From Terriglobia bacterium (GTDB lineage Bacteria > Acidobacteriota > Terriglobia > Versatilivoradales > Versatilivoraceae): a stretch of DNA of 64,000 nt. Shown in pieces: positions 15,226-21,961 of the stretch. Numbering within the stretch: position 1 is the first letter of the stretch; the number at the start of each line of letters is the position of its first letter. The position numbers and the translations under genes were made by a program. A model generated the notes under the pieces. That model was not told the origin of the DNA and ran no database searches. It worked only from the letters and a program-made list of their open reading frames with translations. Location: positions 4,712,437-4,776,436 of the forward strand of contig OX638355.1 in NCBI GenBank assembly GCA_951813285.1, in the 5' to 3' direction.

Positions 15226-15589
15226 GTCTGAAGGTAATGTCCTGGCTTTGGGTGGGCTGACGGCCCCCTTCGTATCAGCCTTCGGCTGGTCTTCCTCCCT
15301 GTTGGGCTGGCGTTTGCCCCCCTCCGCATCAGCCTTCGCCTGTCGGCTCGGCTTCTGCGACTCCCCTCAAGGGGAGAGTGACGGAGCCGCTTGAGGGAGG
15401 TTCGAGTAACAGCCCGCCCCAGAATGCCCCAAGCCGTCCCCCCAAGTCGAGCGTTTTTGGATTGGGGCGCGTTCGAGGGGGCTTTTCCTGGGGGTGTGGT
15501 TGACGTGGTTCGAGAGAAGCTGTGCGTTGGGGGAAGGGCGCACCTGGTTCGCCGCCTTCGCGGCTGACGGAGTGCAGAATTCACACCCC

Positions 15590-15951
15590 CATGGGCTGAC
15601 GCCCACGGCTAAGTACACTGGTTCATAAGTATTGCCACGTATACGTAGCTGCCAAGTCGAGTCTCGCCAGTAAGGTTTCCAGGGTGAACTTTAATAGACC
15701 AGCCAGAATACGTATTAGTACTTATGTGCAGGGGTATTAAGTGCTGGCGAGGCTACGGCGCTCTATAGGGAAGACCTGTAGAAAGCGTTTCGATGGGTAA
15801 CCGACGTCAACCGCGGCTACGCCGCTCTCCCCCAAACCACAACACTGCCGGGGGATAGGATTCTTAAATAATCATCTCCCGGGCGCCAGCCCGGGGTTCG
15901 AGACAAGCCGCGAATGCGGCGCCCGCACTTAGCCGTGGGCGTAAGCCCATG
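15590..15951. repeat. About 360-bp intergenic element bounded by inverted repeats CCATGGGCTGACGCCCACGGCTAAGT / ACTTAGCCGTGGGCGTAAGCCCATGG
   Basis: Terminal inverted repeats at 15590-15616 and 15926-15951. Internal modules (ggctacggcgctctataggga, agccgcgaatgcggcg, agccgcgtaggcggcg) recur at 25190-25340 and 57800-58000. Confidence 0.5.
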
Positions 15952-15995
15952 GAAACGGCGCCCCCACCCCCAAGCCGCGTAGGCGGCGACAGCAA

Positions 15996-17705
15996 TCATT
16001 CCGAGTCCGCATCGCTCACGGGGATGCGCTCCAAGACAAAGTCCTCGATGCGGACTGTCTTGGAGAACGCACCCAGGTGGGTGGTCTCGACGCGTACCAG
16101 CTCGGCTCCCTCCAACCAGTTTTCAGGTAGCGGCGGGCTGCCCTCGGGGAGCCGGAATTCCAAGGACCGTCGACCGACCCGCAGCATGGAGACAATACCT
16201 GACCAGGGGTGGGGATTGGCCAATGTGGCGGGGAAAAAATGGTTTCGACTTCCCAGGAGCGCCTCCCGCCGGGAAGGGTGGACCAGCAGGTAGCATACGA
16301 TCATCCCGGCATCCAAAGTGAGCCTATGTTCGGACTCGCTGAGCAGGATGTTGAATCCCTGTTCCGATGGTCGGTAGATAAGACCGGTCACCGCCCGGAT
16401 GCGGCCGTGATCGGAGCCTCGGACATAGGAGTTCGCCGGGACTGGCCGCATGGTTGCCATCCGGTTCCGTTGCACCACGAACTCCACCTGGGCCTGGTAG
16501 ACCGTGGGGGCGCCGGCATGGCGGTCGTAGTGTTCCCGACGGATCGCAAACAACTCCAACGGAAGTTGCCAGGATGGAGCATACCTGTTGAGGACTTTTA
16601 CTCCGCCCAGCGATCCTTCCAGCATTGCCACCCGGTCCCAGTCCGAAAACTCGTCGATGTAAGACCGATATCGTGGGGACAGGTCAGGGTGGAAACGGGA
16701 ACTCCGCCAGCGATGACGTGCCAGGGCTTTGCCGGACGGTAAGACCTGCTCCGCGGATATGCCCGCGGGGATGGCAACCAGACCCGCGGGCAGCGAGTCC
16801 ACGGCAAGACCTCCCCTGAGAAACAGCCAATCGTCACCTTCGCGTTTCGTCCCTCGATGAAACTTGAGGCTCTCGACCTCGACCCGCGCCGCGACCTGCT
16901 CCGGGTCAAGGATGGCCCGGGTCACGGGGGCTTCTGTCGTCCAGAAATCCCAGGACCACAGAGTCATGAAGAGAATCATTCCGGGAAAAACCGAAGAGGC
17001 CAGGATCAGGCTTCGCTTCGTCCGCCGGGTCAAATACTGATGGCAGACCGCCGTCACGGCTACTGCCAGAAGGAACAGGGAAAATCCAATGGCCGCCGAA
17101 TCTTCAAGGGATCTATCCCAAAGGTCCCGACGATTATGGGTGAGATACAGACGGATTGTGTACTGTACGATTGCCAATCCAACAGCCGCGACAATTCCCA
17201 GGAACAACATGCGGGCCAGGTTGGGGGTCAAGGACGCCAGCATCATGAGAACGGAGAGAACCAGCAACTGGAGCACGACAATTTGTGGAACCGAGCGGAA
17301 GGCATCCAAAAGGGTCACGCCGTTGGAAAGGAGCATCAGGAACTGTAACACCAGGGTCGGAAGGATCACCGCGAGCAGCAGCAAGAGGGACTTGCTTGCC
17401 AGCACGCGGGCCCCGGAAACAGGACGGCTCAGCCAGAAGGCTGTACTGCCGACGGTTGAGTCCCTCTGTATCAGTTGCGAGACGATCAGCACCAGCAAGC
17501 CAAGTTCAAGAGCCGCCAGAAGCCAGGCCAAGCCGGCAAGCAAGACGCCCAACATCATTTCAATGGCAGGAGGAGAACTCGGAAGCCGCGGAAAAACTGC
17601 AATGAGGAGCAATTGCAGGATTGCGACGCTCCACCACCCCGCAAGAGGGAAAAGCAGTCGAAGGTCCCGGAAATCCTTGCCGATGATGTGAAACGTCCGT
17701 TTCAT
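15996..17705 (-). CDS. ABC-2-type transporter permease with a large C-terminal domain of about 330 aa and unknown function (paralog 2)
   Basis: 6-7 N-terminal TM helices with 'VGSTAFWLSRPVSGARVL' shared with its upstream paralog. A 4-bp ATGA overlap with the upstream gene implies translational coupling. Confidence 0.7.
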   Translation of the reverse strand: MKRTFHIIGKDFRDLRLLFPLAGWWSVAILQLLLIAVFPRLPSSPPAIEMMLGVLLAGLAWLLAALELGLLVLIVSQLIQRDSTVGSTAFWLSRPVSGARVLASKSLLLLLAVILPTLVLQFLMLLSNGVTLLDAFRSVPQIVVLQLLVLSVLMMLASLTPNLARMLFLGIVAAVGLAIVQYTIRLYLTHNRRDLWDRSLEDSAAIGFSLFLLAVAVTAVCHQYLTRRTKRSLILASSVFPGMILFMTLWSWDFWTTEAPVTRAILDPEQVAARVEVESLKFHRGTKREGDDWLFLRGGLAVDSLPAGLVAIPAGISAEQVLPSGKALARHRWRSSRFHPDLSPRYRSYIDEFSDWDRVAMLEGSLGGVKVLNRYAPSWQLPLELFAIRREHYDRHAGAPTVYQAQVEFVVQRNRMATMRPVPANSYVRGSDHGRIRAVTGLIYRPSEQGFNILLSESEHRLTLDAGMIVCYLLVHPSRREALLGSRNHFFPATLANPHPWSGIVSMLRVGRRSLEFRLPEGSPPLPENWLEGAELVRVETTHLGAFSKTVRIEDFVLERIPVSDADSE

Positions 17706-19465
17706 TCCCGCTCAATACTCCCGTTTGTGCCGCCGCCGGCTTCGGTCGGCGTCGCCTCCGGAGAGGACCGGGCAATTCGTTCCAACACCAGGTCCTCCAA
17801 GTGGATCGACCTGGAAATCCAACCCAGGTCGCGGCTTTCGATCCGGATCAGTTCGGCCCCGTCATACCAATCCGGACCGATCGGTGGGCCGTTATGAGGC
17901 GGACTGAAATTAAGCCTCAAACGCCGGACTCTCAGCATCGGGAAGCCACGGGACAGATGGGGTGGCATCGACAAGAAGGCCCCCGAATCCCACCCCACCA
18001 GCGCCTGCCGCCTGGACCGATTGATCAGGAGATAGGTAACCTGCCTGCGAACGTCCTGCATGAGCCGATGGCCGATCTCATTGATGTGGACGATCGAGTG
18101 GCCGCGGTTGGATGTGTCAACCGAGAGAATCGCCGCCCGGTCCGAGCCCCTGTCGTAGCCTGCTCCCTCCTCCAACCTCATGGCAGCGATCGCGTTCCTT
18201 TGGATCAGGAAATCCACCTGGGCGGTATATGCCATCCCGACCTCCCGATGGCGGTCGTAGAGATCCTTGCCGAACGCAAAGAGCTCCCAGTCGTGCAGCC
18301 CAACGGGGCCGTCGAAATCCAGTAGGGTTATCCCTCTTATAGTCTGTCTCAGCGCGGCGGCTCTCTCCCCGCTTACATATCCACCGCCCCAACGGGAGAC
18401 ATCGAAGGCATAGTTGCTCTGACTGACGTGACTGGCCAGATGCTCTCCGGAGGGCAAGACCAGCTTGGCAGATATCTGGGCCGCAATGGCGGCAACATCG
18501 GACGGCAGAGGTGACAGCGCAATGCTCCCCTTGAGAACCATCGTCTTGTCTCCCTTCAAGCCGAAGAGAGACAAAGGGGCCCGCGTTGAAGCGAGCGCCA
18601 GACTCTCCCGTTCGACCCTGGCTCCGACTTGTGCAGGGTTCAGGATTGCCGTGTCGAGCCCAGGTGGGGTTGTCCCCAAAAGCTGCTCCCAATTCCCCAT
18701 GGAAGAGATAAGGAGAGCCAGTAAGACCCCCGTCACCAGAAAAATCCTGCTCCAGGTCGTCCTTCGAGTCAGATATTGGCAGCCAACCACGCCCCCGGAT
18801 ATGACAAACAAGACCAGTGCGGTACCGACAAAAACGGTGTCGTAGCTGGGAGGCGGAACGGGCCGCGCCACCGTGATTTCATCGCTCAGAAAGGTTTCCA
18901 TCCCCAGGAAGAAAAGCGACCAGGCGCCAAGCGCTAAGAACCACAGCAGAGGCAGACCGAGAAACGCCAGGCCACCGGCCAGGATCGCTCTGGCCAGACT
19001 GGTGGTCACAGCCGCCAGCATCATGAGAAGAACCACCGCCAGCAGTGCCAGAAAGAAGATCTGCGGAACGGAGCGGAGGGTGTCGTAAGGGGTGACCCCA
19101 CAATTAATGAGGAGGCCGACTTCCACCAGGAGCGAGGGCAGGATGACGGCCAGCACAAGGAAAAGGACCTTACCGATCAGTAGCCGCACTCTCGAAACGG
19201 GCCGGCTCAGCCAGAAGGCGGTGCTGCCAACGGTGCAATCTTTCTGCACCAGTTGGGCAACGATCACTGCCAGCAGGCAGATCTTGAGGACTGCCAACCA
19301 CCCGGCAAAGGAAGAGAGAGAGAAGACAAGTCCTCTCTCAACGGGAAAAAGATGGGGAGCGTACCCGACCAAGACCGCCTGCAGGACCACCAGGCCCAGC
19401 CACAGGCCCAGATAGGGACGCAGACAGCGAAGGTCCCAAGCCGCCAAGTGCAGTATCAGGTTCAT
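17702..19465 (-). CDS. ABC-2-type transporter permease with a large C-terminal domain of unknown function (paralog 1)
   Basis: Same architecture as 15996..17705 and clearly paralogous in both the TM and C-terminal regions. Confidence 0.7.
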   Translation of the reverse strand: MNLILHLAAWDLRCLRPYLGLWLGLVVLQAVLVGYAPHLFPVERGLVFSLSSFAGWLAVLKICLLAVIVAQLVQKDCTVGSTAFWLSRPVSRVRLLIGKVLFLVLAVILPSLLVEVGLLINCGVTPYDTLRSVPQIFFLALLAVVLLMMLAAVTTSLARAILAGGLAFLGLPLLWFLALGAWSLFFLGMETFLSDEITVARPVPPPSYDTVFVGTALVLFVISGGVVGCQYLTRRTTWSRIFLVTGVLLALLISSMGNWEQLLGTTPPGLDTAILNPAQVGARVERESLALASTRAPLSLFGLKGDKTMVLKGSIALSPLPSDVAAIAAQISAKLVLPSGEHLASHVSQSNYAFDVSRWGGGYVSGERAAALRQTIRGITLLDFDGPVGLHDWELFAFGKDLYDRHREVGMAYTAQVDFLIQRNAIAAMRLEEGAGYDRGSDRAAILSVDTSNRGHSIVHINEIGHRLMQDVRRQVTYLLINRSRRQALVGWDSGAFLSMPPHLSRGFPMLRVRRLRLNFSPPHNGPPIGPDWYDGAELIRIESRDLGWISRSIHLEDLVLERIARSSPEATPTEAGGGTNGSIERE

Positions 19466-19484
19466 TTCGCCCTCCTATGCCCAC

Positions 19485-20390
19485 CTAGCCGTAGAGTCGA
19501 AAGGTCCGGGCCAGCGCCAGGAAGATGGCCTTCAGGGACATGGGACGCACCGTCAAGTCCTTTATACCCGGCAGGGAGTTCCGAATGGTCTGCTCGCCGC
19601 CTTCCTCCCGGTAGCGGCAGTCCACGAACCGAACCACTTGGCCCGCCCTCTCCGCCAGCAGCCAGGAATCGGGAAGGGTCTCCGGTATTTCCCGGCCCGG
19701 CTCCAGGGTGGCCTCGCATTGACGGAAGCGGGCCTGCAGTGAGGCAGTGGGCTCCGCCAGCCGCCTCTCTCCCTTGTCGATCACGCCCACCCAGTCGGCC
19801 AGGCGCTCCACCTCGTCGATGTCGTGGGAGGCCACCAGAATGGTCCATTGGCTGCGGCCGCTCAACTCCAGCAGGCCGCGAATGAACTCGTCCCGGACCA
19901 GCGGGTCCAGGCCGGTGAAAGGCTCGTCCAGGATGACCAGCTCGGGCCGGTAGGAGAGCGAGGAAAGCAGCGAGGCCTTGACCTTCATGCCCCGCGAGAA
20001 GGTCTTGATCTTCCGGTTCAGCGGCAGCTCGAACTGGCGGCTCAACTGCCGGCACAGATCGGGGTCCCAGGTGGGATACATGGGGCGGCAGAAGTCGATC
20101 AACTGCTGAACGGTCATCCATTCCAGCATTTGCTGGTTCTCGGAGACGTAGCCGATCCGGGCCAGTTGGGCCGGGCCCAGCCTGAGAGAATCGGTTCCGA
20201 GCATCCGGGCTCTGCCGCTGGTGGGGCGGATCATGTTCATCAGCATCTTGATCACGGTGGTCTTTCCGGCTCCGTTGGGTCCCAGAAAGGCGAAGACGCT
20301 TCCCTCCGGGACCTGCAGCGACAGGTTGCGCACGGCCGTCGTCTTGCCGAATCGCCGCGTCAGCTCGTGGGTCTCAATGATGGCGTTCAT
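19485..20390 (-). CDS. ABC transporter ATP-binding protein
   Basis: Walker A 'GPNGAGKTT', ABC signature 'LSSLSYRPEL', Walker B 'ILDEP'. Confidence 0.9.
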   Translation of the reverse strand: MNAIIETHELTRRFGKTTAVRNLSLQVPEGSVFAFLGPNGAGKTTVIKMLMNMIRPTSGRARMLGTDSLRLGPAQLARIGYVSENQQMLEWMTVQQLIDFCRPMYPTWDPDLCRQLSRQFELPLNRKIKTFSRGMKVKASLLSSLSYRPELVILDEPFTGLDPLVRDEFIRGLLELSGRSQWTILVASHDIDEVERLADWVGVIDKGERRLAEPTASLQARFRQCEATLEPGREIPETLPDSWLLAERAGQVVRFVDCRYREEGGEQTIRNSLPGIKDLTVRPMSLKAIFLALARTFRLYG

Positions 20391-20812
20391 TTCGAGCCTT
20401 CCTTGCCGGGGTTCTCCCGGGCGTTGACCGAAACTTCCGAAAGGCCGTTCCAGTGGTCCTGAACGGCGTCCAGGACCTGCTCCAGCGTCAGCGACAGCCT
20501 TCTGGCCTCCACTACCAGGGCTTCCGCTTCATGGTCCAGCAGCGCCGAGCGCTCCCGCGGGGAGGCCTCCGGCAGGCGGCCCACCATGGTGCCGACTCCC
20601 GGCTTGACCTCCAGCAGCCCCTGGTCCACCAGCCGCGTCACCACCTTCTGAGCCGTGTTGGGATTGATCCGCAGCTCCTGGCTCAGCTTGCGGACCGAAG
20701 GAAAGCGGTCTCCCGGCAGCATCTGGCCCGAGATGATGGCCTTCTGGACGGCGTAGACCAGTTGCTGGTAGATCGACAGGCCCGTTCGGAACTGTACGGT
20801 GAATGGCAACAT
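20387..20812 (-). CDS. GntR-family transcriptional regulator, short YtrA-like subfamily (141 aa)
   Basis: N-terminal wHTH 'SIYQQLVYAVQKAIISGQMLPGDRFPSVRKLSQELRINPNTAQKVVTRLVDQGLLEVKPGVGTMV' with a short C-terminal domain. ATGA overlap with the ABC ATPase. Confidence 0.85.
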   Translation of the reverse strand: MLPFTVQFRTGLSIYQQLVYAVQKAIISGQMLPGDRFPSVRKLSQELRINPNTAQKVVTRLVDQGLLEVKPGVGTMVGRLPEASPRERSALLDHEAEALVVEARRLSLTLEQVLDAVQDHWNGLSEVSVNARENPGKEGSK

Positions 20813-20849
20813 ATGTGTACTATGAGTACTAGTACACGTGATGTCAAGA
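20813..20849 (-). promoter_or_regulatory. Candidate promoter/operator of the gntR-ABC operon: TTGACA -35, GTAC-rich palindrome GTGTACTA..GTACTAGTAC..GTACAC ending at the start codon
   Basis: Minus-strand reading is cTTGACAtcacgtgtactagtactCATAGTacacatatATG. A perfect -35 lies 17 nt from a weak -10. Three GTAC tetramers form nested inverted repeats typical of GntR operators. There is no Shine-Dalgarno, so a leaderless or short-leader mRNA is possible. Confidence 0.35.
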
Positions 20850-21133: not shown

Positions 21134-21249
21134 AGGGGACGTTGTTGAATTACTGGAATAACTTGAAGAAAGCGAGTAGGGAGCGTTTTCAATCAAAAGC
21201 AATTCAGGAACGGCCGATCCAATATATTCCAGTAATTCAACAACGTCCC
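21134..21249. mobile_element. MITE-like element, family A (116-bp form), inserted in an ankyrin-repeat gene
   Basis: Termini GGGGACGTTGTTGAATTACTGGAA ... TTCCAGTAATTCAACAACGTCCCC. The ankyrin reading frame begins immediately at its right end. Confidence 0.6.
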
Positions 21250-21261
21250 CGGCGCAACACT

Positions 21262-21487
21262 CAAGGCCGGCGCCGACCTCAACGCACGGGAGCCCTCTCG
21301 GGGCCGCCCCCCCCTGCACCTCGCCGCTGATTCCAATTTCGATCCGGCAATTGTGTCGTTTCTTCTGGAGGCGGGAGCGGACCCAACGGTTCAAGACAAC
21401 GAGGGCAAGATACCGGTGGATCTCGCCGAGGGCAACCGCGGGCTCAAGGGAACCATGGCCTATCGGAAGTTGAAGGAGGTGCGGTGA
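21262..21487 (+). pseudogene. Ankyrin-repeat protein gene fragment; only the C-terminal part remains after MITE insertion
   Basis: In-frame translation '...KAGADLNAREPSRGRPPLHLAADSNFDPAIVSFLLEAGADPTVQDNEGKIPVDLAEGNRGLKGTMAYRKLKEVR*' holds about 2 ankyrin repeats. It has no start codon and abuts the MITE. Confidence 0.45.
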
Positions 21488-21499
21488 ACGCTGGCGCGT

Positions 21500-21961
21500 T
21501 TGACCGATGATTTGGGAGTCACCATGAAACGTGAATCGGCCGGCGCTTACCAGGTCGCCTGGATTTTGGTTGTCGTTATGGGAGGCTGCGAAGCCCTATC
21601 GGCAGGCGGCGTTGAAGCAAACGAGGGCCCGAGCTGCCAAGACTGGAATACGAAGAGATTTTTCGCGTCCGCGTCGCTAGAGAAGGTGACCGCCTGCCTC
21701 GAAGCGGGGGCCGATCCCAACGCACGGGCAAGTTTTTCACGTGAGACGCCCTTGTACCCGGCAAAGAAACGGACCGAACCCAATCCCGAGGTGATTGCCG
21801 CCCTGGAACAGGCCGGAGCGGAATCGCCTTGGATCGAGATCATGTTTTTCAAGTATGTGTCACTGCCAATCGTGACGGCGTTGGCGGTTAGTGCATTCAG
21901 ACGGTGGCGCCGCACAGCCCGTCCAACCCCCTCAGGGCAGGAAACGATCCAGCCCGTCTGA
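21500..21961 (+). CDS. Ankyrin-repeat protein with N-terminal signal peptide and C-terminal TM helix
   Basis: 'SLEKVTACLEAGADPNARASFSRETPLYPA...PEVIAALEQAGAE' are ankyrin-like repeats. N-terminal hydrophobic 'VAWILVVVMGGCEA'. C-terminal 'IEIMFFKYVSLPIVTALAVSAF'. The real start may be the Met at 21524. Confidence 0.6.
   Translation: MTDDLGVTMKRESAGAYQVAWILVVVMGGCEALSAGGVEANEGPSCQDWNTKRFFASASLEKVTACLEAGADPNARASFSRETPLYPAKKRTEPNPEVIAALEQAGAESPWIEIMFFKYVSLPIVTALAVSAFRRWRRTARPTPSGQETIQPV

Follow-up and report, generated by a model that had tools for sequence, protein, structure and literature searches.

ABC-2 pumps controlled by repressors of the YtrA type are coming to be recognized as minimal modules that sense antimicrobial peptides and expel them, and they have been studied in Gram-positive bacteria only. 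The YtrA proteins carry no ligand pocket and typically bind palindromes of about 24 bp with distant half-sites (PMC6746942). In MbrR-MbrAB of Streptococcus salivarius, genes for a YtrA-type repressor, an ATPase and a permease follow one another, the promoter is autorepressed through a palindrome, and the transporter is proposed to extrude membrane-active peptides while its ATPase controls the repressor, which it is reported to sequester (bioRxiv 10.64898/2026.02.18.706565). Here we describe a locus of the same gene order in a Terriglobia bacterium (Acidobacteriota), located in a 64,000-nucleotide stretch of contig OX638355.1 that is called the window below. The locus comprises a GntR regulator, an ABC ATPase and two paralogous permeases, Perm1 and Perm2. 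There is good support for an operon that is autorepressed and translationally coupled and that encodes a type V ABC transporter with predicted periplasmic ectodomains. MbrAB belongs to monoderm Bacillota and has one permease gene, whereas the window operon has two and belongs to a diderm; the window permeases furthermore add a seventh helix and a domain of about 320 aa predicted to be periplasmic.

Other described systems resemble the locus in part. PmtR-PmtABCD, the phenol-soluble-modulin exporter of Staphylococcus aureus (PmtCD structure 6xjh), differs in having two ATPases and two permeases of about 250 aa without an ectodomain, and the equivalog models for PmtR (NF047563), PmtA (NF047565) and PmtD (NF047564) were matched by the window proteins with 36, 153.7 and 14.1 bits against cut-offs of 200, 350 and 220, respectively. 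The LanFEG/MutFEG lantibiotic immunity transporters share with the locus a single ATPase gene and two paralogous ABC-2 permeases, which in LanFEG form a heterodimer; MutE/EpiE is the best NCBIfam match of Perm1, yet at 17.7 bits against a cut-off of 145. The LanFEG permeases, however, have six helices and no ectodomain, and their usual control is a two-component system. In NosDFY (NosY permease 7o0y/7o17), NosD is a separate beta-helix protein, whereas the domain in the window is fused C-terminally and predicted to be a beta-sandwich; NosDFY moreover serves specifically to deliver copper for N2O reductase, and the window operon contains no nos genes. LptB2FG, also from diderms, is similar by analogy only, with one ATPase gene and two paralogous permeases that each bear a periplasmic beta domain. 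An identity of Perm1 and Perm2 with LptF/LptG was considered and dismissed, as the periplasmic beta-jellyroll inserted between transmembrane helices 3 and 4 was not found in them.

Operon, regulator and ATPase

All four open reading frames (ORFs) that an initial annotation of the sequence had assigned to an operon at 15996-20849 were recovered on the minus strand. They are co-directional in the order GntR (141 aa, 20387..20812), ATPase (301 aa, 19485..20390), Perm1 (587 aa, 17702..19465) and Perm2 (569 aa, 15996..17705). The stop codon of GntR overlaps the start codon of the ATPase gene in an ATGA, and the same 4-bp overlap joins Perm1 to Perm2; the ATPase and Perm1 genes are separated by 19 nt that include a GGAGG Shine-Dalgarno sequence. 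Both overlaps and the gap had been described correctly. Because homologs of the same architecture occur in dozens of genomes, the frames are real genes and not chance ORFs. No second copy of the operon was found within the 64-kb window.

The regulator has a GntR winged helix-turn-helix domain at residues 15-77 (PF00392, E = 4.7e-14, 52.2 bits against a cut-off of 27). Beyond this domain it extends for 64 aa in a total of 141 aa, which places it with the YtrA subfamily by the short C-terminus (about 50-60 aa; total about 120-140). Its best solved relatives, of 113-134 aa, are all short YtrA-type proteins (3tqn, 4ham, 2du9/2ek5, 3neu, 6sbs, 4r1h and 3by6), and alignments to these short PDB entries reach about residue 111. 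Among the NCBIfam models the regulator showed a weak likeness to PmtR and Rv1152, far under the equivalog cut-offs. By its sequence it is a GntR repressor of the YtrA subfamily, as initially proposed.

A consensus scan upstream of the regulator gene found a -35-like hexamer TTGACA (20842..20847, minus strand) and, after a spacer of 17 nt, a -10-like hexamer CATAGT (20819..20824, minus strand), with 10 of 12 positions matching. This arrangement is predicted to be a strong sigma-70-like promoter of the operon. Upstream of the GntR ATG there is no in-frame start codon, and between the -10 hexamer and the ATG there is no room for a Shine-Dalgarno sequence. Since the -10 hexamer ends 6 nt before this only possible start codon, the promoter geometry suggests that the mRNA of the first gene is probably leaderless or nearly so. 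The same geometry was also found in related loci.

A perfect inverted repeat of 23 bp, GTGTACTA-N7-TAGTACAC, lies at 20815..20837, where it covers the -10 box and comes within 3 nt of the GntR ATG. It occurs once in the 64-kb window even when three mismatches are allowed, against a chance expectation of 0. Its arms are identical in ten related loci (L001-L006, L008-L011) at a fixed distance from the ATPase start, and the 7-nt spacer differs among them; near-variants of the arms are present in L012, L015, L017 and L024. Fixed arms around a free spacer are the signature of a protein-binding site, and a palindrome of this length on the regulator's own promoter beside ABC genes agrees with the operators described for YtrA proteins (PMC6746942). 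The repeat is a candidate YtrA operator, and the autoregulation expected from the initial annotation thus has a predicted site.

The ATPase carries the intact motifs of ABC transporter ATPases, namely Walker A GPNGAGKT at residue 37, the variant signature FSRGM at 131, the Walker B segment LVILDEP at 151 and the H-loop SHD at 188, and it scored 84 bits with PF00005. A C-terminal extension of about 85 aa is present. DrrA and PmtA are the closest NCBIfam models, both under cut-off, and in the PDB the protein comes closest to ABCA nucleotide-binding domains, Rv1218c and NosF, each of which works with type V membrane domains. It looks like a functional nucleotide-binding domain of the DrrA/PmtA/ABCA class of ABC transporters. 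Searches with the PADLOC anti-phage defence models gave generic P-loop matches only for the ATPase and no match for Perm1 or Perm2.

The permeases and their C-terminal domain

Perm1 and Perm2 are paralogs over their full length (38% identity, E = 5e-83), which bears out the tandem duplication noted initially. In Perm1 the membrane block spans residues 1-262 (18680..19465, minus strand) and consists of a type V/ABC-2-like six-helix core and a seventh helix; the paralogous block of Perm2 spans residues 1-255 (16941..17705, minus strand). The motifs AFWLSRP (residue 83) and QYLTRRT (residue 230) of Perm1 recur in Perm2 with the same helix pattern. Hydropathy and the structure model agree on seven helices per permease instead of the canonical six, and the seven-peak pattern was also seen across the wider family and in the alignment of distant relatives. 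Comparison of the predicted fold with solved transporters identified the six-helix type V (ABC-2/ABCG/ABCA) membrane-domain fold. Pfam gave weak, sub-threshold matches of the permeases to ABC2_membrane_2 and ABC2_membrane_4 (the latter with E = 0.027 for Perm2). Among 16 diverse family members such matches recurred, again all below threshold, to ABC2_membrane_4 in six (best E = 2e-4), ABC2_membrane_2 in four and ABC2_membrane_5 in two, and one database homolog carries a precomputed PF13346 match. An assignment of the membrane blocks as ABC-2-like, or type V, is supported by these models and matches. The ABC-2-like membrane block of the initial annotation stands as regards fold and sub-threshold Pfam matches, whereas no curated cut-off was reached and the helices number seven. 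A type VII permease of the MacB/FtsX kind, or one of the BceB type, was rejected, given the fit to type V and the lack of matches to PF02687 or PF12704.

Eleven Lys and Arg residues are located in the N-terminus and even loops of Perm1 and three in the odd loops. This bias argues for a cytoplasmic N-terminus, as in canonical type V permeases, and for a C-terminus on the outside. The invariant AFWLSRPxS...K and QYLTRRT motifs fall among the Lys/Arg-rich segments of the cytoplasmic side. The initial annotation had called for a topology prediction to locate the C-terminal domains, and with hydropathy and the Lys/Arg bias combined, the seventh helix is predicted to place them in the periplasm.

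The C-terminal domain comprises residues 263-587 of Perm1 (325 aa; 17702..18679 including the stop codon, minus strand) and residues 256-569 of Perm2 (314 aa; 15996..16940 including the stop codon, minus strand); the two are 38% identical, and that of Perm2 is a member of alignment A2. Both are hydrophilic, and in the structure models the domain, of about 320 aa, is all-beta and rich in beta-sandwich. With Pfam nothing was found at E ≤ 1 for either window domain or for any of the 21 members of A2; the other Pfam scan, described above, covered the 16 members of A3. Sequence searches of the PDB with Perm1 and with the family profiles A1 (113 members) and A3 returned nothing usable, and there was no NCBIfam family match. 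As far as these searches reach, the domain is of no described Pfam, NCBIfam or PDB family, in line with the initial annotation of a large hydrophilic domain without a family. That annotation had named a GldG- or DUF4350-type domain, or membrane domains not homologous to ABC-2, as findings that would overturn it; neither emerged, since Pfam at E ≤ 1 gave no such match and the predicted membrane fold is ABC-2-like. Its more detailed description was confirmed in part. The block YxAQVxFxxQRN is common to both domains (Perm1 413-424, Perm2 403-414), whereas RxHxxPxxxR matches neither exactly and is not shared, in a region that is variable and of low confidence in the model. The domain is rich in Arg (9.5-10.8%) but not in Trp (1.5-1.9%), which is more frequent in the membrane block (3.1%).

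All members of the close family have His466, and nearly all have Glu463. Across the wide family, conservation in the domain is confined to Gly, Pro, Leu and Ala positions, Asn482 and Trp533. An enzymatic role was rejected because His466 and Glu463 are not among these positions, and the lack of conserved residues of catalytic type favors a structural or binding module over an enzyme.

Relatives and genomic surroundings

A word-indexed search found 135 close homologs in metagenome-assembled genomes of Acidobacteriota, all unnamed or 'hypothetical'. The window protein itself was not found in public assemblies; P0001, which is 96% identical to it, lies on a 2.3-kb ENA metagenome scaffold too short to show any neighboring genes. 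When the domain profile was compared with 1.84 billion representatives, 449 clusters (counted at 50% identity) were obtained at E ≤ 1e-3 and 146 at E ≤ 1e-10, from Acidobacteriota, Verrucomicrobiota and Kiritimatiellae. Nearly all of these clusters are proteins of about 550 or 835 aa that contain the seven-helix block and have the domain at residues ~250-560. P0265, a candidate carrier of the domain without transmembrane helices, turned out to be an N-terminally truncated gene at a contig end and offered no new context. In P0163, a protein of 5093 aa without predicted membrane helices, 14 repeated stretches match profile positions 166-197; it may be a repeat protein sharing one beta-hairpin motif, or the matches may be a compositional artefact. 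Besides this family of several hundred clusters, the seventh helix, the predicted periplasmic placement and the candidate operator go beyond the initial annotation.

The neighborhood survey that had been suggested there showed GntR, ATPase and permease genes side by side in 28 of the 34 genome loci, and on the sampled metagenome contigs of distant members the ATPase gene adjoins the permease gene with 4-bp overlaps. In Ca. Versatilivoraceae and other Terriglobia, GntR and ATPase genes are followed by two to four tandem permease paralogs. A Perm1-like gene comes first and a Perm2-like gene second in L001-L008 and L011-L012, and the duplication is ancient. Verrucomicrobiota and Kiritimatiellae have a single permease of about 835 aa (for example L019:8001-10496, L022:7995-10529 and L026:7995-10502). 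These long permeases carry the beta domain at ~295-560 and some 280 further soluble residues, for which neither a Pfam match nor a second match to the domain profile was found. In Bryobacterales, by comparison, the permease is about 255 aa long and stops directly after helix 7, leaving the seven-helix core by itself; a search for the beta domain as a separate gene in these loci found none. The short version indicates that the core unit consists of the seven-helix permease, the YtrA regulator and the ATPase, and that the beta domain is a lineage-specific accretion.

The next gene in nine of the Bryobacterales loci (within L020-L031, for example L029:8713-10761) encodes a conserved beta-lactamase-fold protein of 657-682 aa (PF00144), and in most of these a MacB-like FtsX permease then follows (for example L029:11303-13921). 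This neighborhood hints at an envelope- or antibiotic-related island.

Around the operon in the window, the roughly 400 nt of non-coding DNA 3' of Perm2 (15585-15995) hold no convincing intrinsic terminator, and the sole terminator-like match near this end (16040-16056) falls within coding sequence. Plus-strand AT skew is 0.18 over 16001-20000, compared with about 0 in the sequence directly adjoining and a maximum of 0.15 in the rest of the window; GC is slightly reduced over the same interval (0.60-0.61). The skew probably stems from the membrane genes on the minus strand, whose hydrophobic codons are rich in T, with foreign origin as a less probable alternative. On the other side of the promoter, an open frame at 21233-21487 on the plus strand encodes ankyrin repeats (Pfam Ank, E = 4e-8); its first start codon comes no earlier than 21353, and it looks like a truncated gene fragment divergent from the operon. 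An ORF at 21500-21961 (plus strand) combines an ankyrin-like stretch with a C-terminal hydrophobic helix and has no Pfam match.

Proposed function

We propose, with a probability of roughly 0.55, that the operon encodes a self-repressed type V (ABC-2-class) exporter that expels an amphipathic, membrane-active compound. A dimer of the YtrA-type regulator most likely binds the 23-bp palindrome over the -10 box of its own promoter, and this binding would keep all four translationally coupled genes off. By comparison with relatives, the two nucleotide-binding domains would be a homodimer encoded by the one ATPase gene, and Perm1 and Perm2 would form the membrane pair, probably as a heterodimer. 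The pump would pull an amphipathic compound, such as a peptide, a lipid-like toxin or a metabolite of a host or competitor, out of the inner membrane and expel it; this suggestion for the substrate derives from the nearest characterized relatives, namely PmtCD, the LanFEG- and MbrAB-type ABC-2 pumps and ABCG/ABCA. In the diderm host, the paired periplasmic domains may take up the substrate above the exit site, shield it or hand it on. Induction could proceed as reported for MbrRAB, with the ATPase of the working transporter capturing the repressor, so that expression would scale with substrate load.

Several points speak against this proposal. Neither permease reaches the gathering threshold of an ABC-2 family in Pfam (best 11.8-14.9 bits against about 27) or a cut-off in NCBIfam (weak MutE/PmtD matches), the structure models are moderately confident (pLDDT 74-76), and the topology is predicted from hydropathy together with the positive-inside rule. 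In the window the operon is flanked by genes for unrelated metabolic enzymes, which provide no clue to the substrate. All named homologs are annotated as 'hypothetical protein'. The number of permeases varies, with one in L010 and L019 and four in L003-L006 and L008, so that members of the family need not form a Perm1/Perm2 heterodimer. Finally, sequestration of the repressor has so far been shown in Bacillota only, in a preprint (bioRxiv 10.64898/2026.02.18.706565).

Each of the other explanations is less well supported than export of a membrane-active compound. The transporter could instead be a housekeeping exporter of something that the cell makes for its own envelope or secretes (lipid, glycolipid or peptide), whose periplasmic domains hand the cargo on to the outer membrane, functionally like LptFG or the ABCA ectodomains; we consider this unlikely. 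Quite unlikely is a role mainly as a sensor, in which the periplasmic domains would respond to a ligand from outside or to a damaged envelope, and YtrA and, through it, a wider regulon would be governed by the ATPase cycle, with transport being secondary as in a Bce-like or MbrRAB-like flux sensor. MbrRAB is a precedent for a transporter that acts as sensor and sequesters its repressor (bioRxiv 10.64898/2026.02.18.706565), YtrA proteins have no ligand pocket of their own (PMC6746942), and large variable ectodomains are typical of sensors. The operator, however, occurs only once in the window, where no wider regulon is therefore visible, and the short Bryobacterales relatives keep regulator and transporter without the ectodomain, which is accordingly not needed for the regulatory loop.

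A bolder combination of defence and sensing, which we regard as a long shot, would have the ectodomains sense a ligand or damage and gate the ATPase cycle, with the ATPase capturing or releasing YtrA. The operon would then be a complete, kinase-free device of diderm bacteria for outside-to-DNA signalling as well as for defence, and the two to four tandem paralogs would constitute a combinatorial recognition repertoire. Least probable of all, and in our opinion very improbable, is mechanotransmission as in MacB, LolCDE and FtsEX, where ATP hydrolysis would move the periplasmic domains on a partner or substrate and nothing would cross the inner membrane. Large periplasmic domains on an ABC permease of a diderm would suit such a role, as would the beta-lactamase-fold protein and the MacB-like permease adjoining the ectodomain-less version in Bryobacterales. 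The membrane fold, however, is type V and not the four-helix type VII of FtsX/MacB, FtsX and MacB_PCD matches were absent, and the operon includes no gene for an adaptor or outer-membrane partner.

Although the locus alone opens no long-standing question, it extends the regulator-ATPase-permease unit to diderm Acidobacteriota, Verrucomicrobiota and Kiritimatiellae. New here are the extra helix and the undescribed large periplasmic domain, as predicted, on an otherwise familiar class of exporter, together with its tandem expansion in uncultured Acidobacteriota. Once defined, the domain would be a Pfam-level family and could show how a type V exporter copes with a periplasm. It could also offer a way into the chemical defence or tolerance of Acidobacteriota that are uncultured and apparently live with hosts.

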